Origin: Candidatus Saccharimonadia bacterium
GTDB lineage: Bacteria; Patescibacteriota; Saccharimonadia; UBA4664
DNA: 64,000 nt
Reading direction: 5' to 3'
Assembly (NCBI GenBank): GCA_041743505.1
Contig: JBGTMQ010000017.1
Location: forward strand, 85,368 to 149,367
This document shows positions 34,138 through 56,745 of this stretch, in pieces (position 1 is the stretch's first letter; each line of letters begins with the position of its first letter). The notes beneath the pieces are model-generated. The model was not told where the DNA came from, searched no databases, and was given only the letters and a program-made list of their open reading frames with translations. The translations under genes and the position numbers were made by a program.

Positions 34138-34860
34138 TTAATGTCGCGCCACCGCCGCACCCCACACCTCACTAGCCCCGGCCTCGCGCAATACCCAAGC
34201 ACATTCATCGAGCGTAGCACCCGTCGTCACCACGTCATCCACAATCAAAACCCGCTCACCACGCCCCTTACCAACCGCATAAAACGCTCCTTGAACTCCA
34301 ACCAACCGTTCAATCCGGCTCCGCCCCATCTGGTGCTCAGTCGTAGTTCGTCCGAGCAGCGAACGGTAGGGAAGCCGCAAATGTCGCGCCAATACCCGCC
34401 CAATCAGCTCAGACTGGTTATACCCACGCTCCCGGTAACGTCCCGGCGCAATTGGCACTGCCGTCACCACATCAAACACCAGCCCGCCTTCCAGCCCCGA
34501 AAGCAATAACTGCGCCGCCACTCCAGCCCCGGACCGGGTACGTTCAAACTTGAGGCTCAAAATCAGTTTCTTAACCGCCCCCTCGTACCGGGCGGCCACG
34601 CTCACTCCGGCCAATACCTTCTGTTCAAAGCACCCGCCACACGTCAACCCAAGCCGCGAGCTTCGATGGCAGAAACAGCAGATCTCCACCGGCCGCCGCA
34701 CCCCATTTCGGCAATCCACACACAACAAAACACCTTGGCTCCCGCACCCCAAACACTCCGGCGGCGCAAGCATTTCTATCAGTTGGCGAAGCGGCATCGG
34801 TGTTCCTTGCGTTCCATCTGGCAATTCGCCTATAATAGGCAAAAGATGCCCGCAGCGCAA
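34138..34860 (-). CDS. comFC: ComF family protein (ComFC, phosphoribosyltransferase-domain competence protein)
   Basis: N-terminal CxxC...CxxC zinc finger plus C-terminal PRTase motif VLIVDDVVTTGATL. Possible alternative start at Met 34797. Confidence 0.7.
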   Translation of the reverse strand: MRCGHLLPIIGELPDGTQGTPMPLRQLIEMLAPPECLGCGSQGVLLCVDCRNGVRRPVEICCFCHRSSRLGLTCGGCFEQKVLAGVSVAARYEGAVKKLILSLKFERTRSGAGVAAQLLLSGLEGGLVFDVVTAVPIAPGRYRERGYNQSELIGRVLARHLRLPYRSLLGRTTTEHQMGRSRIERLVGVQGAFYAVGKGRGERVLIVDDVVTTGATLDECAWVLREAGASEVWGAAVARH

Positions 34861-34916
34861 ATAAAAAACCGCGGGCCTAAAACTTAGCTAGTTATCTAAA
34901 GTGGAGATTCATCTAA

Positions 34917-35354
34917 ATGCCGGGTAAGAAAAACGCTTCCCAGACCGATCCAGAGAACGTATTACAGGATGACTTCCTCGATACTACTATGGAAGGCGAG
35001 GACGACTGGATGGCGGAGGCCGAAGGCCAGCTAGCCGTCGACGTCTATCAGACCAAAGAAAACGTTGTCATTAAGGCGCCCATCGCCGGCGTCACTCCTG
35101 ACAAGATCGACATCGAAGTCGCCGAAGACGTCGTCACCATCCGTGGTGAGCGGGTCGAAGAGAAGGAAGTCGACCGTGAGCACTACTACGTCCAAGAGTG
35201 CTACTGGGGTTCATTCTCTCGCTCAGTCATCCTACCGACCTCAACCATCGCCGAAAAAGCCGCCGCCAGCCTCAAAGACGGCGTATTAACGGTTACCATC
35301 CCCAAAGTCGCCCAAGACAAAGTCAAGAAGATCAAGGTCAAGCCGCTAGTCTAA
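34917..35354 (+). CDS. Hsp20/alpha-crystallin family small heat-shock protein
   Basis: Alpha-crystallin domain (AVDVYQTKENVVIKAPIAGVTPDKIDIEV...GVLTVTIPK). Confidence 0.85.
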   Translation: MPGKKNASQTDPENVLQDDFLDTTMEGEDDWMAEAEGQLAVDVYQTKENVVIKAPIAGVTPDKIDIEVAEDVVTIRGERVEEKEVDREHYYVQECYWGSFSRSVILPTSTIAEKAAASLKDGVLTVTIPKVAQDKVKKIKVKPLV

Positions 35355-35374
35355 CCACCAGCTCAGCCGACCTT

Positions 35375-35402
35375 AAAAACCGCCCACCCGGGCGGTTTTT
35401 TA
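35375..35402 (+). terminator. rho-independent terminator of hsp20
   Basis: CCGCCCACCCGGGCGG hairpin followed by T6. Confidence 0.6.
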
Positions 35403-35462: not shown

Positions 35463-35906
35463 CTACTGAGCGTTATTCAACGCATTGATGACGAACTGGA
35501 CCGCTGCGAAGGACAAGATGGCTACCACGATACCCACGATGGCGTAGGTGATGGTGTTCTTGGCCGCTTCAACGTTCTTCGGATCACCATTGGAGACAGC
35601 GTAGCGCAGACCACCAACGATCAAAAACAGCACCGCTACGGCACCGACCAGGAAGATCAAAGTGTTAGCAGCCACCTGGAAGATGCCACCCTGACCAAAC
35701 AAGTTATCTTTGGTGCCATCAGCCTGCGAACATGCCGCTCCACTACTGATATTCAAGTTGGTGGTATTACAGTCGCCTTGCGCAGCCAAAGCCGGCGCCG
35801 GAGCCATCGTCGCGACGGTGGCCAAGCTAAAAACTCCAAACCCAAAGGCGAGAGTAAGAGCCTGAAATGTTACGGCAATTTTCTTGCCAAGAGTTGTGAT
35901 GCTCAT
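35463..35906 (-). CDS. VirB2/TrbC-like pilin paralog 1 (signal peptide plus two C-terminal TM helices)
   Basis: 147 aa. N-terminal signal-like segment, then LIFLVGAVAVLFLIVGGLRYAVSNGDPKNVEAAKNTITYAIVGIVVAILSFAAVQF. Two hydrophobic helices separated by a short basic loop is the VirB2-type topology. Confidence 0.55.
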   Translation of the reverse strand: MSITTLGKKIAVTFQALTLAFGFGVFSLATVATMAPAPALAAQGDCNTTNLNISSGAACSQADGTKDNLFGQGGIFQVAANTLIFLVGAVAVLFLIVGGLRYAVSNGDPKNVEAAKNTITYAIVGIVVAILSFAAVQFVINALNNAQ

Positions 35907-35988: not shown

Positions 35989-36306
35989 CTACTTATTGAA
36001 GGTTGTAACCACGAAGTTAACGATTGCGTATGCGGCAATGGCCAAAATAAGACCAATTACTGAGTACAAAATGGTGTTTCGTGCAGCTTCTGCCTGCTTA
36101 GGATCACCATTCGACGTTATGTAGCGCAAGGCCCCAATAATAATCATTATAACCGCCAGCGCACCGATCAAAAAAATCAGCGCGTTCGAAACAGCCGAAA
36201 AAATGACATTGATGTCTTTATTACCACAAGCCGTTTTGCAAGCGGCACCGGCACCACCACCAATAACGTTTGTAGCGTTATCGGCTAATTTAAAAAACTT
36301 TTCCAT
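35989..36306 (-). CDS. VirB2/TrbC-like pilin paralog 2
   Basis: 105 aa; LIFLIGALAVIMIIIGALRYITSNGDPKQAEAARNTILYSVIGLILAIAAYAIVNF. No obvious signal peptide. Confidence 0.55.
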   Translation of the reverse strand: MEKFFKLADNATNVIGGGAGAACKTACGNKDINVIFSAVSNALIFLIGALAVIMIIIGALRYITSNGDPKQAEAARNTILYSVIGLILAIAAYAIVNFVVTTFNK

Positions 36307-36322
36307 GAAACCTAAATACTCC

Positions 36323-36628
36323 TTAACTTAGTCTGGTACCAATAAACGTAACAGCCGCATACGCAGCAATAGCCACAACGAGGCCCACAATGGCATAAAT
36401 AATCGTTTCGCGGCCTTGCTTGACACGGGTTGGGCTACCAGCCGCTGTCACAATCTGAAGACCACCAACGATGATAAAGATTATCGCCAAAGCGCCGATA
36501 ATGTAAACCAGTAGTTCCACTATGTTACCTAAAGCGTCACTTACGTTCTGGGTAGAGTCCGGCAGCCCGGTCTCACCTTTGAGCGATATTCCCGCTACAT
36601 ATAGGTGGGTCAAAGCCGACTGCATCAT
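36323..36628 (-). CDS. VirB2/TrbC-like pilin paralog 3
   Basis: 101 aa; LVYIIGALAIIFIIVGGLQIVTAAGSPTRVKQGRETIIYAIVGLVVAIAAYAAVTF. Confidence 0.5.
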   Translation of the reverse strand: MMQSALTHLYVAGISLKGETGLPDSTQNVSDALGNIVELLVYIIGALAIIFIIVGGLQIVTAAGSPTRVKQGRETIIYAIVGLVVAIAAYAAVTFIGTRLS

Positions 36629-36975
36629 TAGAACCTACTCGCAATAAACGTGACCCCAGCGTATGCCACCATCACGATAATCAGCCCGGTTACAGCTTGA
36701 GTTATAATCTCTTTGGCCCGCTTCAGCCGCGCCGGGTCACCAATCGCCGTCACATAATAAATGCCGCCCACAATAATAAAAATCACCGCCAGGGCGCCGG
36801 CGAAAGCCATGAGAATCCGAACGAGATTGCCCAAAATAATAATGATGTCATAGACACCCGTAATCTTAACGTCATTACCAGGACAGCTAATACCGTCCCA
36901 AATACTCGGAAAAATTCCTGTCTTAGTGCCGCATGCATTGGCTGCCACTTTAAAGAACTGAAGTATCGGCTCCAT
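36628..36975 (-). CDS. VirB2/TrbC-like pilin paralog 4
   Basis: 115 aa; AFAGALAVIFIIVGGIYYVTAIGDPARLKRAKEIITQAVTGLIIVMVAYAGVTF. Its stop and start overlap the neighbouring genes. Confidence 0.5.
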   Translation of the reverse strand: MEPILQFFKVAANACGTKTGIFPSIWDGISCPGNDVKITGVYDIIIILGNLVRILMAFAGALAVIFIIVGGIYYVTAIGDPARLKRAKEIITQAVTGLIIVMVAYAGVTFIASRF

Positions 36976-37485
36976 CTACAGAATTCCTCCCGGTACCACG
37001 AAGCTTAGTATCGCAAAGGCTAGTATGAACAAAACCAAGGCCGTAACGGCATTTATCAGCCGGTCCTTCGCATCAGTAATTGCCTTGGGATCGCCATTAG
37101 ACACGATGTACTGGATACCCGCCACAATCACCATCAAAACTACTGCCGCGCCAACCGTAGCGGACAAGAACTGCAAAATGGTTTTCAGGTAATTAACAAC
37201 TATGCCGCCACCACTATTATCGACGCAATTTGAACCACCGCCCGGGTTTTTCGTAATCGGGACACCAATAGCCACCTGCCCTTCCGGACAGGTAATGTTA
37301 GACGGCTGTGGCGCTGTAGCACACTCGTTGATATTGCCGGAAGTGTCACAGGCCGGTTCCGCAGCCAAAGCCACCGTCGGCAAAGCTAGCGTCGGCAAAG
37401 CTAGCGCCGTAACTGCCGCCACAGTCAGTAAAATTTTGGCCAGGAAGCGTCTCATTGGCTGAAATTGTAGCCAAGCCCAAAGCAT
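36976..37485 (-). CDS. VirB2/TrbC-like pilin paralog 5 (signal peptide with a tandem-repeat segment)
   Basis: 169 aa; ...VGAAVVLMVIVAGIQYIVSNGDPKAITDAKDRLINAVTALVLFILAFAILSF. Signal peptide LALPTLALPTVALAA is encoded by an 18-nt tandem DNA repeat. Alternative start at Met 37455. Confidence 0.5.
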   Translation of the reverse strand: MLWAWLQFQPMRRFLAKILLTVAAVTALALPTLALPTVALAAEPACDTSGNINECATAPQPSNITCPEGQVAIGVPITKNPGGGSNCVDNSGGGIVVNYLKTILQFLSATVGAAVVLMVIVAGIQYIVSNGDPKAITDAKDRLINAVTALVLFILAFAILSFVVPGGIL

Positions 37486-37528: not shown

Positions 37529-40051
37529 TTGTTGATTGTGTTTTTGGTGAATCACATCTGGGGGAGGGCAGCTAGACAATCGCTGTGGGCGATCCTGTTT
37601 GCTGTGCTCTTGTGCCTGGTGCCTCAAGCCGTTTCCGCCGCCGGCGAATCCTACACCTGGCAAGGCACAGGTGACGCCAGCATTGTAGCCTCCGGCGGTA
37701 ACTTCGGGGTCAATAAAACCACCTTCGCCAAGACCGCCGACGCCGGCGGAAGCGCCACCTTTACCGCCAACGCCACCTATGAATGTAGCGGCAAAACCGT
37801 CACCGGCCCGCTTACCATCACAGTGGCTGCCGACAAGTACAAAAAAGCCTACCCCACCGAAGGAAGCGTTACGGGCGCCGGCGCTGCCTGTGCCTTTACG
37901 GCCGCGGTAATCAGCAAAGCCAACGTCGATCAGGTCACCGGCCAGCCCGTCCCCGCCGCCGGCCAGGACCCACGGGAAAGCTGCGACCAAGGCGGGTTTA
38001 CCTGGCTGTTCTGCCCCGTCATCGACAATATATCCTCAGCCGTTGCCGGCCTGGCCCGGGACGTGCTGGGGCCCATGCTTGAGGTCAAACCAATCAGCCC
38101 AGAAACCACACCGGATCTCTACAAAACCTGGACTCATATCCGTGACTTTGCTGTAGTCCTGTTTATTCTCGTGTTTTTTGCCATTATCGGCGCCACACTC
38201 ATACAACAAGATATCGGCGGCTTCGACCAATATACCGTCAAAAAGATCTTGCCCCGACTGGTTATTGCCTCAATCATGGTACAGTTTAGCTTCCTCATCT
38301 CAGGCATTATTGTCGATATCGGAAATGTCCTTGGAGGTGGCATCGGCCACTTGCTGTCTGCGGTCACTGATCCATCCAAAGGCCCGGCCAGCTTCACCAA
38401 CCTGGTCGGCAACCTGGTCACCGGAAGTGTAGCCTCGGTTGCAGGACTGGGCGCCGTCGCCGTCCTGGCGTCGTGGACTGTCGCAATCCCTGTGCTGCTC
38501 GGCCTGCTCTTGAGCCTGCTGACCGTCTTCCTGACGCTTGGCGCCCGCTTCCTCATCCTGGCCGTCCTGATCGCCATCTCACCGATAGCCATGCTCGCCT
38601 GGGTCCTCCCGAACACTCGCGATTTTGCCGCCGCCTGGTTCGAGTTTTTCGTCCGGCTCGTCCTAATGTACCCGCTGGTTATCCTCATCATCTCCGTAGC
38701 CGGCATCGTCAACCAAATACTGCCGTTTAGTGGCGACACCGCCAATAGCGGCAGCGCAGCAGTCGCAGTAGCCCTCATCAAGCCGCTTGTCGTCATTGCC
38801 GCCTTCCTCATTATTCCCATCAGCTTCAAGCTCGCCGGGCTAGCCCTGAGCCGTATCCATGGCCTGCTCACCGGCGTTGCCCAACAGGGTAAAGGCCTCA
38901 TCAAGGGCAGCGATATGTACCAACGGGGCCTCGAGGACCGTCAGGGACGCAAGAATACCTACATGGGCCGCGTCCTCAACTCCAAAACCATCAGCTCACT
39001 CCAAAATAAGGGGCGCGGCGGCCAAGCAGTCGGCGGTTTCATGAGCGGCGCCGCCGCCGTAGCCTTAATGCGCGCCCCCGCCAGCAAAGCCGCTTTGCAA
39101 CGCAGTAACTCTGCACTAGTGGCCAAGCGGGAAAAGAATCTGACCGAAATCAAAGAGGCCCAAAACCCCAACAACCTCAAAGCCGCTTTAGCCGCCATGA
39201 ATGGCGACGAAAGCGCCCGGGCCAAGCTGCAAAGAACCGCTCCAGACTTACTCCGCCTGGCTTCAACCGCTTCCGGCCGCGAAGCCATGTTCAACCGCCT
39301 TCTCGCCACTGAGTTCGCCGACAGCAAAGACCTTGACCAGTTCCGCACAACCGCACCAAAACGCGGCCTCAAATACTTTGGTGTCACCGGTGATACATCC
39401 GCGGAATGGCGCTCCCTGCGTGACGCCGGCCAGGCCAAACGTAACCAGTTACCGACCATCGTACAGCGGCTCGAACAAGCCAAAACCTACGACGTGGTTG
39501 ACCGCGCCGGCAACACGCTCAAGACCATTTCCCGTGACATGGGCGCCGTTGATATGAATGGCGTCTCCAAGTCATTCGCCAAATACACCGCTGCCAAGCT
39601 GGCCGATGTCTCGCCGGATGTCTTTGAAATGATGACCGACACCGCCAACCCAATCGCCGCCATGGATGCTGCCGAGGCCATGGCCATTGGATTGGAGCCA
39701 CGGCAACTCGCCAAAGTCTTCGACCCCAATGACCGCAACCCGGCTCCCCCTGAGCGCAAGATCGCTATCGCTAAAGCTATGCGGGCCCAATATGAGAACG
39801 TCTGGAACACCAACGATGAATACCGCTCCACCTTCGACGCCATGCATCATCAATTGGTCCGCGACGACAAGCTTGGCGTCCAGCTAACCCGTACCGCCGG
39901 CGCCACCGAAACCCAGCTCCGTGCCCTCTCAAACGAAGGCCAATCCTACGTTGCCTCGCGCTGGCTCAAAGACAAGAACTTCAAGTACTCAGATCTAAGC
40001 GGCATGACCGTCGCCGACATCAACGCCGCCGGCCATGCCCTCCGGAGATAA
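37529..40051 (+). CDS. VirB6/TrbL-like polytopic T4SS membrane protein with long hydrophilic C-terminal extension (paralog A)
   Basis: TTG start (the exact start is uncertain). Signal peptide, then a Cys-containing exported segment (CDQGGFTWLFCPVIDN), at least 6 TM helices (DQYTVKKILPRLVIASIMVQFSFLISGIIVDIGN...), then a ~400-aa Ala/Lys-rich soluble tail. Confidence 0.55.
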   Translation: MLIVFLVNHIWGRAARQSLWAILFAVLLCLVPQAVSAAGESYTWQGTGDASIVASGGNFGVNKTTFAKTADAGGSATFTANATYECSGKTVTGPLTITVAADKYKKAYPTEGSVTGAGAACAFTAAVISKANVDQVTGQPVPAAGQDPRESCDQGGFTWLFCPVIDNISSAVAGLARDVLGPMLEVKPISPETTPDLYKTWTHIRDFAVVLFILVFFAIIGATLIQQDIGGFDQYTVKKILPRLVIASIMVQFSFLISGIIVDIGNVLGGGIGHLLSAVTDPSKGPASFTNLVGNLVTGSVASVAGLGAVAVLASWTVAIPVLLGLLLSLLTVFLTLGARFLILAVLIAISPIAMLAWVLPNTRDFAAAWFEFFVRLVLMYPLVILIISVAGIVNQILPFSGDTANSGSAAVAVALIKPLVVIAAFLIIPISFKLAGLALSRIHGLLTGVAQQGKGLIKGSDMYQRGLEDRQGRKNTYMGRVLNSKTISSLQNKGRGGQAVGGFMSGAAAVALMRAPASKAALQRSNSALVAKREKNLTEIKEAQNPNNLKAALAAMNGDESARAKLQRTAPDLLRLASTASGREAMFNRLLATEFADSKDLDQFRTTAPKRGLKYFGVTGDTSAEWRSLRDAGQAKRNQLPTIVQRLEQAKTYDVVDRAGNTLKTISRDMGAVDMNGVSKSFAKYTAAKLADVSPDVFEMMTDTANPIAAMDAAEAMAIGLEPRQLAKVFDPNDRNPAPPERKIAIAKAMRAQYENVWNTNDEYRSTFDAMHHQLVRDDKLGVQLTRTAGATETQLRALSNEGQSYVASRWLKDKNFKYSDLSGMTVADINAAGHALRR

Positions 40052-40084
40052 AACTGCTCACCAGAGCCACAAACCACAAGCAGT

Positions 40085-40113
40085 TTGACATTTTTGTAGG
40101 CTTGGTGTATAAT
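40085..40113 (+). promoter_or_regulatory. consensus sigma70 promoter
   Basis: TTGACA-17 nt-TATAAT read directly in the sequence, about 100 nt upstream of the 40212 gene. Confidence 0.6.
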
Positions 40114-40211
40114 GTAGTTATGATTTGGAAGCAATACTAAAACTCCAAATCTGTTGATCCGGCATCCGCTGGATTTGACAACTCACGAGACATAGCCCGA
40201 GGGGGGCCGAA

Positions 40212-40907
40212 ATGTCTGCACCACTGAAGGACCAGCCACGGCTATACGAGACGCCGGCCTCACCGCCGGCTCGCGACAAGTTCCGGCACCGTCACCCAGT
40301 TATCTTCTGGGGCTTGATCTTAAGCCCGGTGCCATTACTTATCATTGCCTTCATGGCATTGGTACTACTGGCCAGCGCGCTGCCTGATGTCCCATCCGCG
40401 GCATCACCAGCTCCCGGCAGCATCAGCTCCACCCAGGGACAGGTAACCGCGCCGGCGCCACAGCGGGCCGACCCCACCAAGCAATACGATCTGTCCACGC
40501 CCACGGGTAAGATCGCGGCCTCAGATGCAATTGTGGCCATGGGCCCGCTCAAGACTGAATACTACCTCGATGCTACCGCCAGCGAGGTCGAAATCCGGGA
40601 CTGGGTCATAGACGTCGTGTTCATGCACTGCAACCCTTCAAACCGCTTTACCCGGTTTGACCTTCTGGCGCCGAACATCATTGCCGATCCCGTCCCCGGG
40701 AATTCGGTATATGATCTCTTCGACAACTGTGCCACTATCGGCACTCCAACCACGCAGTACCAGTACATGCTCAACCCCGTTCCAAATAAACCGGTCCGCC
40801 AGTACGACTGGGTCCTGGTCCGCCCGGGTCAACCGGACACCATGGCCACCGTACACCTCACCTGGAGGTCTGACCATTGGCTCATCACGGCAGTCAGCCC
40901 CCACTGA
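40212..40907 (+). CDS. hypothetical bitopic membrane protein (VirB8-like topology)
   Basis: 231 aa. Short cytoplasmic N-terminus, one TM helix, ~160-aa extracytoplasmic domain. The size and topology resemble VirB8, but no sequence motif confirms it. Confidence 0.4.
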   Translation: MSAPLKDQPRLYETPASPPARDKFRHRHPVIFWGLILSPVPLLIIAFMALVLLASALPDVPSAASPAPGSISSTQGQVTAPAPQRADPTKQYDLSTPTGKIAASDAIVAMGPLKTEYYLDATASEVEIRDWVIDVVFMHCNPSNRFTRFDLLAPNIIADPVPGNSVYDLFDNCATIGTPTTQYQYMLNPVPNKPVRQYDWVLVRPGQPDTMATVHLTWRSDHWLITAVSPH

Positions 40908-41013
40908 CCAGTCCGCGAAACAGCCCGCCCTAGCGACGTAGATACCCATCTACGGAGCTAGGGCATTTTTTGTTTTGATACATTGATTCCGCTCATGCTA
41001 AAATCGAGTCATC

Positions 41014-43716: not shown

Positions 43717-43739
43717 CAATCCCCCGACAACTTGCTTAC

Positions 43740-43768
43740 TTGCTAATTATTAGTAAATATGCTATAAT
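43740..43768 (+). promoter_or_regulatory. sigma70 promoter with extended -10
   Basis: TTGCTA-17-TGcTATAAT upstream of the 43846 gene. Confidence 0.55.
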
Positions 43769-43845
43769 AAATAATCTATTTGTGCTTCTTTTTTATATGA
43801 ACACATATAGCGCCCCCGACAGCCTCGACAAGACAGGAAAAGCTA

Positions 43846-44532: not shown

Positions 44533-44540
44533 CTGTCCAC

Positions 44541-44575
44541 CCCGCCCCTTGCGAACTGCAGGGGGTCTTATTATT
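44541..44575 (+). terminator. conserved terminator element, copy 1
   Basis: CCACCCCGCCCCTTGCGAACTGCAGGGGGTCTTATTATTT: stem CCCCTTGC/GCAGGGGG plus a T-run. Confidence 0.6.
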
Positions 44576-44630
44576 TACCAATAAATGCTCCGCAAAGCCG
44601 CTGTTTGTGGGCGAATTCCTTCTTACACGC

Positions 44631-45388: not shown

Positions 45389-45398
45389 CCCATCAGCC

Positions 45399-46240: not shown

Positions 46241-46249
46241 CCCGTCCAC

Positions 46250-46287
46250 CCCCGCCCCTTGCGAAACTGCAAGGGGCCTTCTTTTTA
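46250..46287 (+). terminator. conserved terminator element, copy 3
   Basis: CCACCCCCGCCCCTTGCGAAACTGCAAGGGGCCTTCTTTTT. Confidence 0.6.
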
Positions 46288-46405
46288 CCCAAATATTGAA
46301 ATGTTCCGGTTCACAGATTCGTATATTTAGCATAACCATTCGCAATAAATGGCACTTTATCGCTACTCCATTTGCAATAATAGGAAAATTTACCCCCAAA
46401 ATCAC

Positions 46406-46434
46406 TTGCCCCCACAGCAATCTGGCGATACAAT
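46406..46434 (+). promoter_or_regulatory. sigma70-like promoter upstream of the virB3/virB4-like operon
   Basis: TTGCCC-17-TACAAT. Preceded by direct repeats ATTCGCAATAAATGG / ATTTGCAATAATAGG. Confidence 0.4.
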
Positions 46435-46506
46435 GACCCATTCGCTTGGAGTCGAAGGCGATATAGCGTAAGCTTATTACAAGTAGTGGTGTGAGTTCAG
46501 GAGCCA

Positions 46507-47352: not shown

Positions 47353-48088
47353 CCAGTCAACCAGTAACCCAGCCAACACCGGCAAGAGCACTCAGGGCAG
47401 CTTGCTGATTTCTGAAATCAAAGACGGCGTGGTCGTAATGCGCGACGGCTCGTTGCGCGGCGTCATCCTCGGCTCGGCCATTAACTTCGACCTCATGAGC
47501 TCGCAGGAGCAGGAGGCCGTCGAATTTGCTTACCAGGGCTTTATTAACTCATTGCACTTTCCCGTCCAAATCAGTATCAAGAGCCAGAAAATAGACCTGG
47601 ACGGATATCTCGAAAAGTTAACCGCCCTGCGCAGTGCCCAGCCCAATGAGCTGCTCGGCCTGCTCATGGACGACTACATGGCTAACATCAAGGCCCTGGT
47701 CGACGAGGTCAACATTATGGACAAGCAGTTCTACGTCACCGTGCCGTTCTTCCCGCCGGTAAATCCCACCAAAACGGTTAGCCTCATTGCCGGCATCAAA
47801 GCCGCCTTACAACCCGTCCCGATTATTACGGTTGAAGAAGATGAGTTCAAAAAGTACAAGCAAGAGCTGTCGCAGCGCATGGCCTTGGTCTCAAGCGGCA
47901 TGTCCCAAATGGGCATCCGGGCGCTAGCCTTGGGTACCCAGGAGCTGGTTGACCTGTATTACGGCTGGTACAACCCGGATGTGGCCGTCAACGAGAAACT
48001 CATCGACACTTCACAGCTCACCTCACCGGTAGTTACCAAGGGTGACGGCGCCGCGCCCCGCGGACCATTACCGGGAGCACCAGTATGA
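47342..48088 (+). CDS. VirB4-like ATPase, N-terminal domain encoded as a separate ORF
   Basis: ISEIKDGVVVMRDGSLRGVILGSAINFDLMSSQEQEAVEFAYQGFINSLHFPVQISIKSQKIDLDGYLEKL matches the conserved VirB4/TrbE/CagE N-terminal region. The start overlaps the upstream stop. Confidence 0.55.
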   Translation: MVNNQSTSNPANTGKSTQGSLLISEIKDGVVVMRDGSLRGVILGSAINFDLMSSQEQEAVEFAYQGFINSLHFPVQISIKSQKIDLDGYLEKLTALRSAQPNELLGLLMDDYMANIKALVDEVNIMDKQFYVTVPFFPPVNPTKTVSLIAGIKAALQPVPIITVEEDEFKKYKQELSQRMALVSSGMSQMGIRALALGTQELVDLYYGWYNPDVAVNEKLIDTSQLTSPVVTKGDGAAPRGPLPGAPV

Positions 48089-48224
48089 GACGGTTCCGCC
48101 ACGCGTACCTGGATGCAGTACCAGGAAAGAGCGAAGCCCGGAGTGAGGCGTACTTAAACGTACGCCAAGCGAGGACTGTAGCTCATGACGCCGTAATGCG
48201 CCAGGTACGCGGGGAGGATAGCTA

Positions 48225-50114
48225 ATGGCTATATTTGGCAAAAAACAAGAACCAATGACACCAGGCGGCCTGGCCGCAGCTCAACAAGCTCAAGAGCAGC
48301 GCGAAGCCGAGTTAATCTACCGCCAAGGCATTGTCACCATGCGCGACCTCATCGCGCCACCATCACTCGAGATCGAGTCAGGCTACATTCGGCTAGGCAA
48401 GCGCTTCGCCAAGACCATTTACGTCTACGGTTTTCCCCGCCAGGTCTTTACCGGCTGGCTATCGCCCATTATCAACCTGGACGAAATTATCGACATTTCG
48501 CTGTTTATTTATCCCGTAGAGAGCAAGGTCGTGCTGGAAAACCTGCGCAAAAAAGTCGGTCAGCTGGAGGCCAGTTACTCGATCAACCAGGAGAAGGGCA
48601 AAGTCCGCGACCCTGGACTCGAAGCCGCCATCCAAGACGCCGAGGAACTGCGTGACAAACTCCAGGTAGGGGAGGAGCGCTTCTTCCGCTTCGGCTTGTA
48701 CCTCACCATGTATGCCGATTCACTCGACGAGCTCACCCAAGTCACCCGCAAAATCGAGGGCATTTTCGGCCAGTCACTGGTCTACACCAAGCCGGCCACC
48801 ATGCAGATGGAGCAGGGCTTCAACTCCACCACACCGCTCGGCTCAGACCAGCTCGGCATCTCCCGCAACATGAACACCGGCGCCCTGTCTACCAGTTTCC
48901 CGTTCACCTCGGCCGAATTGAGCCGCAACGAAGGAGTGTTGTACGGCCTCAACCGGCACAACAACGGTTTGGTTTTGTTTGACCGCTTCTCGCTCGAAAA
49001 CGCCAACATGGTCGTGTTCGCCAAGTCCGGCGCCGGTAAGTCCTTCGCTATCAAGCTCGAAGCCCTACGTAGCCTCATGATGGGCACCGAAATCATCATC
49101 ATCGACCCGGAGAACGAGTACAAAACCCTCGCAGAGGCCGTCGGCGGCAGCTACCTGCGCCTGTCCCTGGCTGCCACCACCCGCATCAATCCCTTTGACC
49201 TGCCGCGCGTCTTTGACCAGGAAGAGGCCGACAACGCCTTGCAGGCCAACATTATCACTCTGCACGGCCTGCTGCGCCTCATGATGGGTGGTGCCTCCGT
49301 CAACACCACCACCGGCGCCACGCTCACCACACCACTGACTCCGGCCGAAGACGCCGACCTGGACGTGGCTATCATCAACACCTACGCCCGCGCCGGCATC
49401 ACCAAAGACCCGTTGACCCACAACGTCATGCCGCCAACCATGAATGACCTCTATAACACCCTGGCCTCCATGACCGGCAACGGCCCCGGACTGGCCCAGC
49501 GCCTGCGCAAATACACCACCGGCACATTCAGTGGTATCTTCTCAGAACAGTCCAACGTCAAACTCGACAACCCGTTCCTGGTCTTCAACATCCGCGACCT
49601 CGAAGACGAACTGCGGCCCGTCGGCATGTACATCGTCCTAAATTACATCTGGAACAAGGTCAAATCCGACAAGCGTAGGCGCATCCTCATCGTGGACGAG
49701 GCTTGGCAGCTCATGAAATACGACGACTCGGCTGCCTTCATGTTCTCTCTGGCCAAACGTGCCCGCAAGTACTTCCTCGGCCTTACCACCATCTCCCAGG
49801 ACGTGGAAGACTTCTTGAGTAACAAAATGGGCCGGGCAGTCGTGGCCAACTCCTCGCTACAGCTCTTGCTCAAGCAAGCCCCCAGCGCCATCGACATCGT
49901 GGCCGACACCTTCAAGCTCACCAGCGAGGAGAAAAACCGCCTCAGCCAGTTCCCGGTCGGTGAAGGATTGTTCTTTGCCGGTCTCAACCACGTCATCATT
50001 CGCATTCTCGCCTCACAAACCGAAGCCGAGCTCATCTCAACCAACCCGCAAGCTCTCCAAGCCGCCCGCCAGGAGCAGGCTGAGGCTGATGCCGGTCGCC
50101 AAGGAGCAGCCTGA
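48225..50114 (+). CDS. VirB4/TrbE-like T4SS ATPase, central and C-terminal ATPase part
   Basis: A GGGGAGGA RBS; Walker A FAKSGAGKSF; Walker B RRILIVDEAWQLM; conserved VirB4 middle region (IAPPSLEIESGYIRLGKRFAKTIYVYGFP). Confidence 0.8.
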   Translation: MAIFGKKQEPMTPGGLAAAQQAQEQREAELIYRQGIVTMRDLIAPPSLEIESGYIRLGKRFAKTIYVYGFPRQVFTGWLSPIINLDEIIDISLFIYPVESKVVLENLRKKVGQLEASYSINQEKGKVRDPGLEAAIQDAEELRDKLQVGEERFFRFGLYLTMYADSLDELTQVTRKIEGIFGQSLVYTKPATMQMEQGFNSTTPLGSDQLGISRNMNTGALSTSFPFTSAELSRNEGVLYGLNRHNNGLVLFDRFSLENANMVVFAKSGAGKSFAIKLEALRSLMMGTEIIIIDPENEYKTLAEAVGGSYLRLSLAATTRINPFDLPRVFDQEEADNALQANIITLHGLLRLMMGGASVNTTTGATLTTPLTPAEDADLDVAIINTYARAGITKDPLTHNVMPPTMNDLYNTLASMTGNGPGLAQRLRKYTTGTFSGIFSEQSNVKLDNPFLVFNIRDLEDELRPVGMYIVLNYIWNKVKSDKRRRILIVDEAWQLMKYDDSAAFMFSLAKRARKYFLGLTTISQDVEDFLSNKMGRAVVANSSLQLLLKQAPSAIDIVADTFKLTSEEKNRLSQFPVGEGLFFAGLNHVIIRILASQTEAELISTNPQALQAARQEQAEADAGRQGAA

Positions 50115-50136
50115 TGAGGCACAAGGAGGGTAAGTA

Positions 50137-53088
50137 GTGGCAGAACCAGCACGGCCACTCGACTCTGATCAACCCGAATACCTGGATTCACGGGCCGCAC
50201 GTAAAGCCCGCATGCGTGGTGGCTCTATCGAAGGTGGCGGTGAGGGCGGCGAACCAGTCAACCGCGACCTCCGGGCAGTTCCCGAATCCGAGACCAAGCC
50301 CGAAGCCCCGGCCAACGAGATGGGGGACAACGCAAAAAATCAGGGCCGCCCTAACCTCCGGGTAATCCCGGGAGGCAAAAGCGATAATGCCGGTTCGCGG
50401 ACCGGCGGAGCCCCAGACCCCGGCGCCTCAGGCGGCCAAAATAACCCCGCTGGTGGGCCCGGCTCCAAGAGCAGCAAAGGCGGCGTCGGCGGCAAACTGG
50501 GGCAAATGTTCGGCCGCAACAAGAAAAAAATGATAGCCGGCGGTGGCATCGGCGCCGTTCTCATAAGTGCAATCCTCGGCGTCATCGCTCTTCTGCCCCT
50601 CAAAATGGAATCGTTAATCCAAAACGTCATCAAGGATGAGTTCAAGCGTGCTAACTATGCGGTTGGTGAGCGGGCCGAAGTGCTCGCGGTCTATTACTTG
50701 GCCCGTAAAGCCAATGTTGACATTGGCAGAAATATTGTAACCGGCGGTCCCGTCGATCTCCTGTTCGGCAATATGGCCAAGAACGACTTCGAAAAAACAC
50801 TTCTCAAAAACCATGGTATTAAAGTTGAAGCAGGTTCCGCCAGGGGTCGCATTAAGGTTACGTATACAGGACCGTACGAGACTAAGAGCATCGACGATCC
50901 GCTTAGTGAGTATATTAACCAAGACCTCAGTAGCAACGATTCCCGTGCATTCTTAAAAGCCGCCACGAAAGAATATACCAGAAGTGCCACCAAATACCCG
51001 CTTGTGCTTATCCGACGCCACATCCGGTCCTGGATGCGCAACGCCTACGGCATTCGTAAATGGAAGCTTTATGACGGCAAAAAGGGCAAAGAGGCCAGTA
51101 AATTTATTGATGGTGAAATCCGGACTGCAGCCATGAGTTCCTATGGAGATCGTGTAGGTAGAGGTTTGAGTTGTATCTTGGGCGATAAAGCCAGTTGTCC
51201 CGACGCGGCCAAAGCCAACCCCAATCCAAACGAGGGCCGGCCCGCCAATGCCGATGGCGAAGCTGCCAGACTGGCGCTAAACGAAGCCATCTCTGAGGTA
51301 GCTGGGAGCGAAGAAACCTTGACTACCGATGCCGTGACAAAAAAAGTTAGCGAAAGCTTACTCAAGCAAACCGCCACCAAAGCCATCCCCATCATTGGCT
51401 GGATCGACCTCGCTGCCCGCATCGATGATGTCGTCTGGCATAATATTATCGGCCAAATCATCGCCGACTACCGCGCTGCGCAATACGCCGCCACCTTCGC
51501 CATCTTCGCCACCGCCGCCGACAACCAAAAGGAGGGCATAGACGGCACTACCAAGAACCGTGCCTCCGGCGACGAAGTCAACGCCGTCATGCTCAAGGTA
51601 GCTGATGTTCATAAGTCAGCCGACTTCCAGCGAATTTTTTTTAACCGGGCCGGCGGTCAAAAGCTGCCTCCAGAAAAACAAGTCAACAGCGCCAACGCTG
51701 CCAGCTTTACCGCCGGCTATCAAAAGGAAATGTTCATCTTCCATTACGGTATCTTCGTTCCATACCTAGCCACTATTGGCCAAGTTGTCAACTTCCTTGG
51801 CGACCTTATCGGCGGGGTTCTCGGGGTAATTGGCGACGCCCTCACCGCGGTGCTGCCGTTTTTGAACGACGTCAAAAAATTCATAGGTGAAGTCATGATG
51901 AAAGTATTTCAATGGATCTTCCCGCCGGTAGTAACCGGCGCCGAACGCGACGGAGAACTCTTTACCGCCATCGACACCGGCGCCGATGTCACCGCCAACG
52001 ATTTCTGCAAAGGTGTCTTGGGCTGTGTCAAAGTATCACCCACCGCCGCCGCCGAAGCTGACCGCCGAATAGCTATAAATGAAGCCACCGAGTTTAGACA
52101 GCAGGACCTTATTTCCCGCATTACCGATATTCAGAACCCCAACGCCTTCGGTGCCCGTTTCCTCGCCCTCATGCCCACCAGCGTCGGCAGTGTTACTAGT
52201 CAAACTCAAGACTATTTGGCGTCCATTTTTTCCAACCCCTTACGATTCTTTGCGCCATTCCTGGGTGTACTGTCTCACACCTTAGCGCATGGTGTCAGCG
52301 CTGACGCGCCCATTCCCAAAGAGCATGGTGTCCAACAGTACAATGTAACCCAAGAAATGATCGATGCCCCCTTGAACGAGCTCGTCGCCAGCGGCAAGGC
52401 CAAAACCCGCGAAGACTGTCTCAACCCGTCCATAAATCCCGAAGCCGCCAACCCCGAAGGACCCAATAGCTGTCTCTTGGAGCTAGCCGCCGTTCAAGCT
52501 ATGAATGCCGTTTACACCAAAGACAATGACGGTGGTCTCGAGCCCGAAGCCGGCGCACCCGCCGGCGGTGGCGGTATCATCAATGGACCTGGCGGCAATA
52601 TAGCCACAGCCGGCTGCAACGACGCTAGAACCTGCGCCCAAAAAATCCTAGCTCTTGTACCAAGCAAAATTACCTTCCAGCAACCCAGCGACCGGTCAGA
52701 CATGGAAAAAGTTGCCAACGGCCAACCAGTCGTTTACTGCCAGGTCAATGGCCCCATCAACACCACGCTGCTCCAAGCCATCGTCGTGGCCGGCCAGACC
52801 TACAGCTTTAGCATCAACGCCCTAGCCTCCGGTCACGGCAAATGTGACGGCGCCTTCCACGACAAGGGCCGAGCCGTTGACGTCGGCAACGTGAACGGCG
52901 TCCAAGCCACCCAATCAAACCTTGGCACCGCCACCTACAAACAATTTGCTCAATTCATTGCCAATCTCTTACCAAACGGCGGTCTTGGCCAAATGCAATG
53001 CCTCGGTTCACTCAGCCCTGCGCCCCACCGCTACTTTGAAGATGGTTGCAACCACATTCACTTCGATGTCGGGGCTGGTGCCCCTTGA
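50137..53088 (+). CDS. large bitopic membrane protein with a C-terminal M15-like (Hedgehog/DD-peptidase fold) zinc-peptidase motif
   Basis: GTG start after an AAGGAGGG RBS. Gly-rich disordered cytoplasmic N-terminus, one TM helix (IGAVLISAILGVIALLPL), an ~830-aa extracytoplasmic region, and a C-terminal SGHGKCDGAFHDKGRAVDV...GCNHIHFDV stretch that resembles H-x7-D...H-x-H zinc ligands. Confidence 0.45.
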   Translation: MAEPARPLDSDQPEYLDSRAARKARMRGGSIEGGGEGGEPVNRDLRAVPESETKPEAPANEMGDNAKNQGRPNLRVIPGGKSDNAGSRTGGAPDPGASGGQNNPAGGPGSKSSKGGVGGKLGQMFGRNKKKMIAGGGIGAVLISAILGVIALLPLKMESLIQNVIKDEFKRANYAVGERAEVLAVYYLARKANVDIGRNIVTGGPVDLLFGNMAKNDFEKTLLKNHGIKVEAGSARGRIKVTYTGPYETKSIDDPLSEYINQDLSSNDSRAFLKAATKEYTRSATKYPLVLIRRHIRSWMRNAYGIRKWKLYDGKKGKEASKFIDGEIRTAAMSSYGDRVGRGLSCILGDKASCPDAAKANPNPNEGRPANADGEAARLALNEAISEVAGSEETLTTDAVTKKVSESLLKQTATKAIPIIGWIDLAARIDDVVWHNIIGQIIADYRAAQYAATFAIFATAADNQKEGIDGTTKNRASGDEVNAVMLKVADVHKSADFQRIFFNRAGGQKLPPEKQVNSANAASFTAGYQKEMFIFHYGIFVPYLATIGQVVNFLGDLIGGVLGVIGDALTAVLPFLNDVKKFIGEVMMKVFQWIFPPVVTGAERDGELFTAIDTGADVTANDFCKGVLGCVKVSPTAAAEADRRIAINEATEFRQQDLISRITDIQNPNAFGARFLALMPTSVGSVTSQTQDYLASIFSNPLRFFAPFLGVLSHTLAHGVSADAPIPKEHGVQQYNVTQEMIDAPLNELVASGKAKTREDCLNPSINPEAANPEGPNSCLLELAAVQAMNAVYTKDNDGGLEPEAGAPAGGGGIINGPGGNIATAGCNDARTCAQKILALVPSKITFQQPSDRSDMEKVANGQPVVYCQVNGPINTTLLQAIVVAGQTYSFSINALASGHGKCDGAFHDKGRAVDVGNVNGVQATQSNLGTATYKQFAQFIANLLPNGGLGQMQCLGSLSPAPHRYFEDGCNHIHFDVGAGAP

Positions 53089-54419
53089 AAAAGGTCATCC
53101 TTCGATTCATTGTCATTAGCATCATGGCAACACTCATACCATCGGGTGTTTTTGCCGTTTCGCCGGAGGACCGCCATGCCATCTATAACAATACGGTCTG
53201 GTATGACCCCTATGCCGTCGAGTGCGGCCCAATCGGTACGGGCATCACCCCTGGCGGCGGTGGACCAGCCGCTCCAGGATCGGATAACATGGAAGAAATC
53301 TGGAACAACCTCATCACCAGACTGACACCGTTCCAAGTAGCCGGCATCATGGGTAACATGCAGTCCGAATCCGGGTTTGACCCCTACATTGTCCAGGGTG
53401 GTGGCCATTCACAAAACCCGTCAGTTGCGGGTGAAGGCGTGGGTTACGGCCTGGTGCAATGGACACCCGGCTCCAAGCTCACCACACTGCTAGCCGGTAA
53501 ACCACCCACCATCCCCAACCAAATCGATGCCTTATGGGTCCAGCTAACCGGCACCGGCGCCCATTCCGAAAAAAAAGCCGGCGACAATTTACGAGCCACC
53601 ACCAGCATTGATGACGCCACAGTAGTTTTCGAGCTTCAGTACGAACGGCACGCCGGCGGGGCCCAGCCGGCCCGCAAAACCCAGGCTCATGCCATCCACA
53701 AACTCGCTCAAGAAAAAGGCTGGAACATGGGCACCGCCGTAGTAGTGCCGGTTGGCAGCGGCGGACCCGGCGGGGGACCAGGCGGCGGCCCGGCTAGTAC
53801 AACACCCCAATCAGCCGCCAACTGTACAGCACCAGCTGGTGCCGGTGGTGTCGGTTGCACCAACGGCGCCAACATATTGCCAGTGCCCCCAGGGGGGAAG
53901 GGAACACCTGCCTGCTACTTCAACCAATCCGACCTCAGTGGCGGCAACTACGATTGGCCCGAATGTGGCTGCCTGCCGACCTCAGCTCTCATCATCCGGG
54001 CCTCGGTCGAAAACAATCCAACCCTTGATCCGGTCAGTGTGCTTGAGGGCGTCCGCTCCAAAGGCGGGGTCCATGAGGGGGGATGCTTGGGTGTACATGG
54101 AGGCGCCATCAACTACATCCAGTCACTAGGCTACCAAACCCAAACCATTGTTCCGTGGCATGGAACAATTACCGATGCCTCAATCGCCACAATAACTAAT
54201 ATGCTTGGACAAGGTTTCATGTTCATGACCCATACTTCTAAATCAATTGACAGCGCCGGCTCTAAAGACACCCCGGGCCACTTCCTAGTCATCCATGCCG
54301 TCGATGCCCAAGGCAATTTCTACGTCGCAAACCCCGGAGCCCGGGCCGATAACAATAAACCTGTTCCAGCCTCCAGAGTAAAAGTCTGGCTGGACATGGC
54401 GGTAGCATTCAAAAAATGA
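53046..54419 (+). CDS. secreted cell-wall hydrolase (VirB1 functional analogue): lysozyme-like domain plus C-terminal CHAP-like peptidase
   Basis: Signal peptide (alternative TTG start at 53085). The AGIMGNMQSESGFDP...GYGLVQWTPG motif is typical of the phage-tail-lysozyme-type muramidase domain found in Gram-positive conjugation hydrolases. The C-terminal Cys...His region (GHFLVIHAVDAQGNFYVANPG) is CHAP-like. Confidence 0.55.
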   Translation: MQPHSLRCRGWCPLKKVILRFIVISIMATLIPSGVFAVSPEDRHAIYNNTVWYDPYAVECGPIGTGITPGGGGPAAPGSDNMEEIWNNLITRLTPFQVAGIMGNMQSESGFDPYIVQGGGHSQNPSVAGEGVGYGLVQWTPGSKLTTLLAGKPPTIPNQIDALWVQLTGTGAHSEKKAGDNLRATTSIDDATVVFELQYERHAGGAQPARKTQAHAIHKLAQEKGWNMGTAVVVPVGSGGPGGGPGGGPASTTPQSAANCTAPAGAGGVGCTNGANILPVPPGGKGTPACYFNQSDLSGGNYDWPECGCLPTSALIIRASVENNPTLDPVSVLEGVRSKGGVHEGGCLGVHGGAINYIQSLGYQTQTIVPWHGTITDASIATITNMLGQGFMFMTHTSKSIDSAGSKDTPGHFLVIHAVDAQGNFYVANPGARADNNKPVPASRVKVWLDMAVAFKK

Positions 54420-54934
54420 TGGACTACCTACGCAATCACCCAATCCTGTCTCTGTTAGTCGGCGGTGGTATTGTGCTAATCGCCATCATTGCAGTAACCG
54501 TCCAAGCGCTCCAATCCAACGATCCCAAAGCAGATCAAGACCCCCAACAAGCTACCAGCTTCTACAGTCCCTTAGCCCAAACCTCAGATAGTCTGCTCGT
54601 AAACTACGGTGGTAGCGCCGACCCCAACCAGGACGCCGTCCATGGACGGTTCAAAGTCCTCGGTCTTGACGCCATGCCGCTACCCCAGTCCGTCAAAGAC
54701 TCCCTGTCATCATCACTAACCACGTCTCTGGAAAAAGTCATAACACCCACGTACTCTTTGGCCTATATTCACATAGACCGCAGTAGTATTAACTGCCACA
54801 CCCAATTTGATTGCCGTTTCTCGCTCTACATAGATAGCCCCGAAAGCTACCACTCTTACCACTCTTACCTCAAACCGGATGGCAGCCAAGCCTACTCGCT
54901 CACCGCTCAACCATTCCCGGGAGCCGGCCAATGA
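54416..54934 (+). CDS. hypothetical bitopic membrane protein
   Basis: 172 aa, one N-terminal TM helix. Translationally coupled (the start overlaps the upstream stop). Confidence 0.4.
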   Translation: MMDYLRNHPILSLLVGGGIVLIAIIAVTVQALQSNDPKADQDPQQATSFYSPLAQTSDSLLVNYGGSADPNQDAVHGRFKVLGLDAMPLPQSVKDSLSSSLTTSLEKVITPTYSLAYIHIDRSSINCHTQFDCRFSLYIDSPESYHSYHSYLKPDGSQAYSLTAQPFPGAGQ

Positions 54935-56277
54935 ATACAGGTATATTAATCCGGCGCGCCATTCTCGGCCTGATACTAATCGGCGCCTTAACCGGCTTTT
55001 GGTACTTCACGATTAGTCATAGTTTTGTGCAATTGACCTTGCCATCAGGAACCGACAAAGCTGAGGTCACCAATAGCCAAACCGGCCGTACCATCACCAC
55101 CCGCGCCAGCTCAGGCTGGATCAACCTGCCCACGGGTGACTACGTCATCACCTACTACCAGGCAGGACAAGCAACCAATATGCAATTCACTCACATCGGG
55201 CCGTTGTCTGTGCAATCCGTCAAACCATCCCAGGCCCAGCCCGGCCAAAAACCGTTAACCGTACTCAACCACGCCGCTGACCTCGTAACGCCGCTTGGTA
55301 ATGGCTACTTGTATCTGGACAAAGCAACCCGCGGACTCAGCTATGCGGATGCGGCCGGAACCACCGACATCAGTGCCCGCTTCCACCTCACAACCAATCC
55401 CGGGGCCAGTCTGGCAGTCAGTGACCAGTCGATCCTCAACACCGTTATTGGCCTCGAACCGGTCACCGGCGGGGGAGTCGTCGTTACCACCACCCGGGGA
55501 GTTTTTACCGCTAGTAGCCCAACCAACATAACCCAGCTCCCGGTTTTTCCTACCGCTAACTTGAACCACACCTCCAGCGCCTACGACCGCCAAACTGGTA
55601 GCCTGTTCGTGCTCTCCAGCTACTCCAAAACCCTCTACCGCTACAATCTCAATAAACCAGCTGCCGCTCCGGCCGTCTTCTATCAAGGCAAACTCGAACT
55701 CAACCGCCTAGCAGCCGGGGGTGGCAAAGTGGTCGCCTACTTCGACTCAGTTCCATCCACCGAGCCAGCTGTGCTCGCCCAGTACGCCTTTAAACGCCAA
55801 CTCAACCCGCTCGTCATCGATGCAGACGGCCAACTCATCAAAGAACTAACCGGCTTCCAACCCGCCACCTATCTCTCGGTATCAGCCAGCGGTAACTACC
55901 TGGCTATCAAGAAGAAACTGGCCGGGTCAATCACCATCTACGATCTGGCTTCAAACAAAACTACTACGATACCCAGCCATGACACTGGCGGCGCCGGCTG
56001 GCGCGGCGACACGTTCTATCTGGCTCGAGACAACGCCATTTGGTCGTATAATACTATTGACGACGATGGCCTCACAAAAGTCGCTGGTACTAATGCACCC
56101 GTAACTCGACTGGTATTAACGCCTAGCCAAACCATTTTGACCACCAATCAAAATACAACCGCCAGCCTAGAAAAAACCGGGGCCACGAAAACACCTGTCA
56201 CTGTTCCATCCGCCCCCGGAACACCGGACCCTGCGCGCTACATTTACTACGCGCCACCACCGGAAACCGGCCGCTAA
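54931..56277 (+). CDS. hypothetical bitopic membrane protein with a large beta-rich ectodomain
   Basis: 448 aa, N-terminal TM helix, Thr/Ser/Gly-rich ectodomain. The start overlaps the upstream stop. Confidence 0.4.
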   Translation: MNTGILIRRAILGLILIGALTGFWYFTISHSFVQLTLPSGTDKAEVTNSQTGRTITTRASSGWINLPTGDYVITYYQAGQATNMQFTHIGPLSVQSVKPSQAQPGQKPLTVLNHAADLVTPLGNGYLYLDKATRGLSYADAAGTTDISARFHLTTNPGASLAVSDQSILNTVIGLEPVTGGGVVVTTTRGVFTASSPTNITQLPVFPTANLNHTSSAYDRQTGSLFVLSSYSKTLYRYNLNKPAAAPAVFYQGKLELNRLAAGGGKVVAYFDSVPSTEPAVLAQYAFKRQLNPLVIDADGQLIKELTGFQPATYLSVSASGNYLAIKKKLAGSITIYDLASNKTTTIPSHDTGGAGWRGDTFYLARDNAIWSYNTIDDDGLTKVAGTNAPVTRLVLTPSQTILTTNQNTTASLEKTGATKTPVTVPSAPGTPDPARYIYYAPPPETGR

Positions 56278-56295
56278 TATTATCAGGAGAGTACC

Positions 56296-56745
56296 ATGCC
56301 GAATAATCGTAAGATAATTATGATCGTAGCGGTGGCCATACTCATCGCCCTCGCCGCCTTCATCACCATCACCAGCTCACCGTCAGGATCCAAAGTCGGC
56401 TCAACACCGTCACCCACCCCGGGACCAGGCGTTCAGTATTCCGGCACCGATGCCCTTATTCGACAAGGCGTCTCGTCAAACAATCTCGAAAACCTCAAAT
56501 TCGCCATTTTCAAATTTAACCGCGATGCCAAAACGGTTACCATCGCCAACGCTGATCATGCCCACAGCATGGCCCCGGATGGCGCCGCCATAGACTCAGT
56601 AGCCTTTGACATAACCATCGACCAAACCACCTACAAAGGTGACCTCCTTAGTGTTGGCCTTGAATCCGCCAAACTAACCCTTAAAGACCCCAAAACCAAA
56701 ACCCTGGTATACGACTCAGGAGTGGTTAAGGTCGATCGCAAATAA
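56296..56745 (+). CDS. hypothetical bitopic membrane protein
   Basis: 149 aa, N-terminal TM helix. Last gene of the plus-strand T4SS-like block. Confidence 0.4.
   Translation: MPNNRKIIMIVAVAILIALAAFITITSSPSGSKVGSTPSPTPGPGVQYSGTDALIRQGVSSNNLENLKFAIFKFNRDAKTVTIANADHAHSMAPDGAAIDSVAFDITIDQTTYKGDLLSVGLESAKLTLKDPKTKTLVYDSGVVKVDRK

Follow-up and report, generated by a model that had tools for sequence, protein, structure and literature searches.

The 64,000 nucleotides analysed here (hereafter the window; positions 85,368 to 149,367 of contig JBGTMQ010000017.1 in the Candidatus Saccharimonadia bacterium assembly GCA_041743505.1) carry at 35463-56745 a block of genes that, with high confidence, we consider to be the chromosomal type IV secretion system (T4SS) that Saccharimonadia inherit vertically, its genes matching, as orthologs and one by one, SEML1_0004-0019 of Candidatus Southlakia epibionticum ML1. 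Saccharibacteria, very small bacteria that grow on other bacteria, all have this cluster beside the origin of replication. In that organism an apparent T4SS encoded by SEML1_0006-0019 was found by transposon sequencing (Tn-seq) to be essential (Wang et al., 2023, Cell; PMC10633639), and most genes of the locus, including all six pilins, are essential for epibiotic growth, a requirement known in this one species (PMC10633639). A first-pass annotation, made from the letters of the window alone, had proposed that the block is not a conjugative element and is instead a chromosomal machine of the kind seen in episymbiotic bacteria of the candidate phyla radiation. Both statements stand: the flanks are housekeeping genes, there are no mobility genes in the 64 kb, the gene order equals that of the Southlakia T4SS locus (SEML1_0001-0022) and the relatives of its VirB4 are Saccharimonadia/Saccharibacteria.

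The core of the locus and its conservation

The published Southlakia locus runs from dnaA through dnaN, recF, two exported proteins, a lysozyme/cysteine-proteinase protein (PF18013), an 1113-aa (amino acid) Hedgehog/DD-peptidase protein, VirB4, a 293-aa unannotated protein, PrgI, a VirB6-like protein, an NTF2-like protein and a second VirB6 to six PF18895 pilins, Hsp20, ComFC (K02242) and tRNA-Ser (PMC10633639). The window has the same content in the same order and on the same relative strands from dnaA through tRNA-Ser, with the whole series inverted, and both loci lack a relaxase and a type IV coupling protein (T4CP). The two differ in that the window has five pilins where Southlakia has six and a single lysozyme domain in the corresponding protein where Southlakia has two, in that three orphan cassettes separate VirB6 from PrgI in the window only, and in that its three distal single-pass proteins and the protein encoded between its VirB6 genes have no detectable sequence similarity to relatives. 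All reading frames are intact across the T4SS block, the GC content of which matches that of its flanks (~55% for the window).

The VirB4 ATPase (48225-50114, + strand) was recognized by the P-loop_TraG, AAA_10 and DUF87 profiles and matched the solved VirB4 C-terminal domain 4AG5 (E=3e-47), and both of its nucleotide-binding motifs are intact (Walker A, AKSGAGKS, at residue 266; Walker B, ILIVDE, at residue 487). Its nearest relatives, among the best 120 of >8000 homologs, are 82-92% identical and the named ones are Saccharimonadia/Saccharibacteria; by this similarity, the VirB4 belongs to the Patescibacteria lineage. A PrgI/VirB3-like membrane protein (46507-47352, + strand; PF12666, 54 bits) is the equivalent of SEML1_0010. 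Between the PrgI and VirB4 genes is one that the first-pass annotation had overlooked, encoding a TrsD-like protein (47330-48088, + strand; equivalent to SEML1_0009), a designation that combines a weak match to the NCBIfam TrsD model (E=1e-5, under the cut-off), a precomputed Pfam assignment to TraC-like PF26593 and the position of the gene. A profile-profile comparison of the TrsD orthologs with the N-terminal domain of VirB4 was not significant (E=0.35), meaning that the published remote homology was not reproduced with Saccharimonadia sequences alone.

Two extended VirB6-like proteins are encoded on the same strand. The first (37529-40051, 840 aa; equivalent to SEML1_0013) is polytopic, with five to six transmembrane (TM) segments and a long hydrophilic C-terminal extension, and matched TrbL/VirB6 PF04610 at 27.9 bits against a cut-off of 25.9. 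The second (41014-43716, 900 aa; equivalent to SEML1_0011) gave no match in Pfam and was assigned by paralogy, being 37% identical to the first over a 356-aa membrane core (E=2e-59). The pilins are VirB2-like and divergent, and their five genes lie on the - strand (35463-35906, 35989-36306, 36323-36628, 36628-36975 and 36976-37485), the equivalents of SEML1_0014-0019. All five products score above the gathering score of the Pfam model T4SS_pilin PF18895 (30.6-49 bits), each has a two-helix hydrophobic hairpin, and a GDP loop is conserved among them at pairwise identities of 31-48%. Five pilins, two VirB6-like proteins, a VirB3-like protein and a VirB4 with both Walker motifs had all been named in the first-pass annotation, and every one of these designations was borne out.

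That annotation had also listed VirD4, VirB11, a relaxase and an integrase as missing. Pfam scans of every open reading frame (ORF) of at least ~150 aa in the 64-kb window agreed, finding no ATPase of the VirD4/FtsK-like or VirB11/T2SSE kind and neither a relaxase nor an integrase, and no ORF of the block had a Pfam match to VirB5, VirB7, VirB9, VirB10 or VirB11. Monoderm-type (MPF_FATA-like) T4SSs normally have no VirB11. For the coupling protein, the absence holds within the 64-kb window, which is part of a 149.5-kb contig, and cannot be claimed for the genome as a whole, because VirD4-like genes are common in Patescibacteria genomes, most of which have one, at sites far from virB4 (PMC12102498).

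How general is this arrangement? We mapped the window proteins onto 80 GTDB loci around VirB4 relatives (64-92% identity, almost all labelled Saccharibacteria), counting upstream genes in the 52 loci with at least 9 kb upstream of virB4 and downstream genes in the 58 with at least 9 kb downstream. TrsD and PrgI were upstream of virB4 in 52/52 and VirB6 in 50/52, the latter as one copy in 31 loci and as two in 18 of the 52. Over the related loci as a whole, PrgI was found in 70 and a TrsD-like gene directly upstream of virB4 in 78-79, and pilin arrays of four to seven genes were common. Downstream, dnaN was within 10 kb in 53/58 loci, and dnaA was present in 50/58. Strands were identical wherever the genes were found, with dnaN (56 loci), dnaA (51) and recF (47) all downstream and on the opposite strand; the synteny comparison that the first-pass annotation had proposed thus gave the same order and orientation in related Saccharimonadia loci and in Southlakia. 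In the same loci the median identity to the window was 68% for VirB4, 52% for DnaA, 44.5% for DnaN and 36% for RecF, and by this measure VirB4 is under stronger constraint than the replication genes that accompany it. The rigid order, strands and flanks, taken together with the conservation of VirB4, lead us to conclude that the locus serves an old, vertically inherited core function and is neither a mobile element nor the remnant of one.

The locus is also a typical one in a wider setting. In their survey of 2,474 Patescibacteria virB4 genes, Quinonero-Coronel et al. (2025, Microb Genom; PMC12102498) described a monophyletic VirB4 clade related to MPF_FATA, a widespread VirB4/TrsD/PrgI/VirB6/VirB2 set, arrays of 2-11 divergent pilins, a near-absence of relaxases, VirD4 genes mostly far from virB4, and dnaA/dnaN/rnpA nearby. 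The window shares the gene set, the pilin array, the lack of a relaxase and of a nearby T4CP, and the proximity to dnaA, and nothing substantial differs. With the MPF_FATA systems of pGO1, pCF10 and pIP501 it has in common VirB4, a PrgI/TrsC-type VirB3, TrsD, VirB6-like proteins and a large bifunctional cell-wall hydrolase, and both are without an outer-membrane core and VirB11. However, a T4CP, a relaxase and surface adhesins belong to the MPF_FATA systems, which reside on mobile elements and have no pilins, whereas the locus in the window has pilins, lacks a T4CP and a relaxase (within 64 kb), is chromosomal and is to all appearances vertically inherited.

Cell-wall hydrolases, single-pass proteins and orphan cassettes

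The first-pass annotation had counted two cell-wall hydrolases, and for one of them the claim holds as made. This is a membrane-anchored lysozyme plus C39-like cysteine peptidase (53046-54419, + strand; start codon uncertain), a VirB1 analog equivalent to SEML1_0006, which matched Phage_lysozyme2 at 92.8 bits and Peptidase_C39_2 at 21.5 bits, the latter under the 24-bit cut-off. The other is a large single-pass protein of 983 aa (50137-53088, + strand; TM segment at 131-161), the C-terminal module of which has an H-x6-D...H-x-H motif that we take to be the zinc-ligand pattern of LAS/DD-peptidases. The motif is kept in 10 orthologs, in which D136, H194 and H196 are invariant, and the protein is the positional equivalent of SEML1_0007, assigned to the ECOD Hedgehog/DD-peptidase group. 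Sequence and profile searches of Pfam and the PDB returned nothing for this module, and the peptidase call, and with it the second half of the hydrolase claim, is therefore made from the motif and the Southlakia ortholog. In the related loci L002-L081 the C-terminus of the large protein that follows VirB4 varies: motifs read from the raw sequence (e.g. L022:11917-14949, L011:11943-15092, L032:11941-15012) are of an H-x6-D/CNHIH type, a VanY-like SxHxxGxAxD...WHW type or an M23-like HLHF type, differences that suggest module swapping.

Both of these proteins are among six in the block that have one N-terminal TM segment each (starting at 40212, 50137, 53046, 54416, 54931 and 56296), in keeping with the several bitopic proteins noted earlier. 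The first of the six, an orphan of 231 aa (40212-40907, + strand; TM segment at 28-64), has a perfect sigma-70-like promoter of its own (40085-40113) and is the positional equivalent of the NTF2-like (VirB8-like) SEML1_0012. A search among 5.8e9 proteins found only the protein itself, with no homolog even in the closest relative, and a single-sequence AlphaFold2 model reached a pLDDT of 52 and had no Foldseek match in the PDB at E<=0.001; for these reasons the VirB8-like label is a positional one. The slot between the VirB6 genes likewise holds single-pass proteins or lipoproteins in other loci. We take the structure 4EC6 to be the VirB8-like TraM of pIP501. SEML1_0012 (278 aa, non-essential) has been assigned to the NTF2-like ECOD domain e4ec6D1 (PMC10633639 Tables S1/S2), whereas the 2025 survey detected no structural VirB8 homolog in the Southlakia proteome (PMC12102498). 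At the dnaA-proximal end, three further single-pass proteins (54416-54934, 54931-56277 and 56296-56745, all on the + strand) occupy the position of SEML1_0004/0005. The first two had no match in Pfam or NCBIfam and the third none in Pfam, the one library used for it, and orthologs of the three were found only in the closest relative, L002, apart from a few weak matches.

Between the second VirB6 gene and PrgI is an insert (43717-46506) with three soluble orphan genes (43846-44532, 44723-45388 and 45578-46240, all on the + strand), each of which forms a promoter-ORF-terminator cassette. The first two encode paralogs of 228 and 221 aa that are 46-49% identical, and the third, of 220 aa, may be a diverged copy of them. 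Each cassette has a sigma-70-like promoter, one of which is a perfect TTGACA-17-TATAAT, and the terminators are near-identical, with a 10-bp stem (GCCCCYTGCGAA(A)CTGCARGGGG followed by a T run); GC content drops to ~0.50 at the cassettes. Neither the Southlakia locus nor any of the 80 related loci has these genes. The 228-aa protein found only itself among 5.8e9 proteins, an exhaustive HMMER search of 1.84e9 representatives with the family yielded one true relative (P0124) and one spurious repeat protein, and a metagenome scan found no member. An AlphaFold2 model of the 228-aa protein, with the paralog as sole alignment partner, was unusable (pLDDT 44.5). P0124 is encoded on a 1.15-kb contig (L083:1-1153), the first and last 30 bases of which are identical; these repeated ends hold a terminator-like hairpin preceded by a GTCCACC..GCCCC motif, as in the window, which suggests that the cassettes are in tandem there too.

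Neighbouring genes, the probable origin and the orientation of the operon

Beside the pilin array, as the first-pass annotation had stated, are comFC and hsp20, recognized by Pribosyltran and HSP20 matches, respectively. The Hsp20 small heat-shock protein gene (34917-35354, + strand; 69 bits) has the position of SEML1_0020, which is essential, and is present in 19 related loci. The gene for the comFC-like phosphoribosyltransferase (34138-34860, - strand) has the position of SEML1_0021 and is upstream in 17 related loci; it is a conserved neighbour and not a part of the T4SS.

On the other side of the block are recF, dnaN, an orphan gene and dnaA (57004-62104, - strand, with a PadR-like gene at 58307-58642 on the + strand). 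The 233-bp spacer between dnaA and rpmH (62105-62337) is probably oriC, as it contains three DnaA boxes (at 62144, 62185 and 62222) with one mismatch each; rpmH itself (62338-62475, 45 aa) is on the + strand, as are rnpA and yidC further on. Over the window as a whole DnaA boxes are not enriched (13 observed versus 10.9 expected), and it is the cluster of three in the spacer alone that is suggestive. GC skew on the + strand is negative throughout the window, with the sign change outside it, as would be expected with an origin at or beyond ~62 kb. The first-pass annotation had placed the block about 3 kb from dnaA. It is indeed adjacent, but the distance was underestimated, since the block ends 4.0 kb from the dnaA stop (60719) and ~5.4 kb from the spacer with the DnaA boxes.

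The + strand operon at 37529-56745 (~19 kb) points to dnaA and converges on recF-dnaN-dnaA. Given an origin in the dnaA-rpmH spacer and the skew observed, the main operon would be on the lagging strand and transcribed head-on to replication, and the pilin array alone would be co-directional with it. The same head-on arrangement occurs in Southlakia and in every related locus in which dnaN, dnaA or recF was found. The 2025 survey proposed an effect of gene dosage near the origin and does not mention the orientation of the operon (PMC12102498).

The remainder of the window encodes a valyl-tRNA synthetase, two phosphoglucomutases, a Mur ligase, two FemAB proteins, TsaD, Sua5, an arginase-family protein and an extracytoplasmic function (ECF) sigma factor, together with five tRNAs, which were all that Rfam found in the window. 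Three small genes encode PadR-family regulators (7636-8088, - strand; 33645-33983, - strand; and the gene at 58307-58642), two of which lie on either side of the T4SS block, the first past comFC and the second between recF and dnaN; no similar sequence was found at the PadR positions in the related loci. An orphan of 621 aa with one N-terminal TM segment (28723-30588, - strand; no Pfam or NCBIfam match) adjoins the ECF sigma factor gene (27550-28167) and two tRNA-Arg genes.

Function of the machine

How the machine might work we infer from the parts list, the orthology and the local absence of conjugation genes, all of which are established by the comparisons above. VirB4, probably with the TrsD-like protein, would be the only dedicated ATPase, docking on and energizing a membrane platform of PrgI/VirB3 and the two extended VirB6 proteins. 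Passage through the peptidoglycan would fall to the lysozyme/cysteine peptidase and the putative LAS-type metallopeptidase, and the five divergent pilins could assemble into an extracellular tube reaching the host bacterium; epibiont and host would in this way be joined by a contact-dependent conduit. As the locus encodes neither a relaxase nor a coupling protein, the cargo would not be relaxase-piloted DNA.

A major question is then “What passes through this conduit, and in which direction?” A 2024 perspective called the role “completely unknown” (PMC11665869), and a 2025 review, which described such systems as newcomers to the T4SS superfamily, speculated that the pilus is a conduit for uptake (PMC12857230). 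Tentatively, and at a little under even confidence, we favour the uptake of host-derived macromolecules ahead of the export of effectors, because these organisms are auxotrophic, because comEC can be deleted from S. epibionticum while the T4SS is essential, and because a 2026 preprint describes a Patescibacteria parasite that feeds on host RNA, in which the tubes may be T4SS pili.

Several points weigh against this picture. Nothing in the window bears on substrate or direction, and we know of no pilus demonstrated for any of these systems. The essentiality data come from a single species, S. epibionticum ML1, and within the window the DD-peptidase assignment relies on position and motif and the VirB8-like assignment of 40212-40907 on position, neither protein having given a significant match. 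Finally, a VirD4-like gene may exist elsewhere in the genome, and its cooperation with the machine would make the export of cytoplasmic cargo more plausible.

Export of effectors into the host, either with no dedicated coupling protein, as in Brucella VirB and Ptl, or via a distant VirD4 homolog, is in our view only slightly less likely than uptake. It has been speculated for Saccharibacteria (PMC11665869, PMC10633639), exporters that lack a T4CP exist (PMC12102498), and the three soluble orphan genes inside the locus could encode cargo. However, we know of no effector from any member of the Patescibacteria, and the orphan genes cannot explain an essential function shared by the class because they are absent from all relatives.

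Considerably less likely is a dedicated DNA-uptake (competence) system like ComB of Helicobacter pylori, which would pass DNA to ComFC and ComEC. Like the locus in the window, ComB is chromosomal, lacks a T4CP and a relaxase, and was repurposed from conjugation; comFC is a conserved neighbour of the T4SS (17 loci), comF, recG and radA co-localize with T4SS genes in the class ABY1 (PMC12102498), and these organisms lack nucleotide synthesis (PMC11665869). Yet the VirB7, VirB9 and VirB10 of ComB, a machine of diderms, are absent from the block, and the link to competence is unsupported for Saccharibacteria: natural transformation in S. epibionticum is attributed to type IV pili (PMC12857230), and deletion of its comEC ended competence and left viability unaffected (PMC12857230, PMC10633639). 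Since the ComFC homolog beside the locus, SEML1_0021, scored as non-essential as well, the essentiality of the T4SS cannot run via ComEC. The suggestion in the first-pass annotation of a chromosomal secretion or uptake machine thus survives, but DNA uptake argued from comFC is weak.

That the block is the inert remnant of a decayed integrative and conjugative element (ICE), stripped of relaxase, coupling protein and integrase, is extremely improbable. The tRNA-Ser genes 0.8-1 kb past comFC could be seen in its favour, as tRNA genes are frequent ICE integration sites, but we rejected them as such a site on finding the same tRNA neighbour in Southlakia. PrgI, TrsD and VirB4 do descend from monoderm conjugation machinery (PMC12102498), but conservation effectively refutes this origin for the block: order, strands and flanks recur across the class, the conservation of VirB4 exceeds that of DnaA, no reading frame is broken, the block has the GC content of its flanks, and the orthologs are essential in S. 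epibionticum.

We conclude that the window holds one more ordinary copy of a T4SS that is already catalogued in thousands of Patescibacteria genomes. All of the particulars listed in the first-pass annotation are in the literature, and no new kind of system is added. The value of the comparison is confirmatory, in that it separates a rigid core (VirB4, TrsD, PrgI, VirB6, the pilins, the hydrolases, and the position and orientation of the locus) from slots with fast turnover (the single-pass proteins, the hydrolase module and the inserted orphan cassettes). The Saccharibacteria T4SS has been reported as the first that is essential to its own carrier, and it may provide a monoderm with a pilus (PMC12857230, PMC11665869). 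Two items go beyond the literature cited here, the three orphan promoter-ORF-terminator cassettes and the head-on orientation of the main operon. It is conceivable, if quite unlikely, that the cassettes encode lineage-specific cargo or host-specificity factors, or that the conserved head-on orientation couples expression of the operon to replication. If true, either would be the first handle on what the machine transports or how it is timed.

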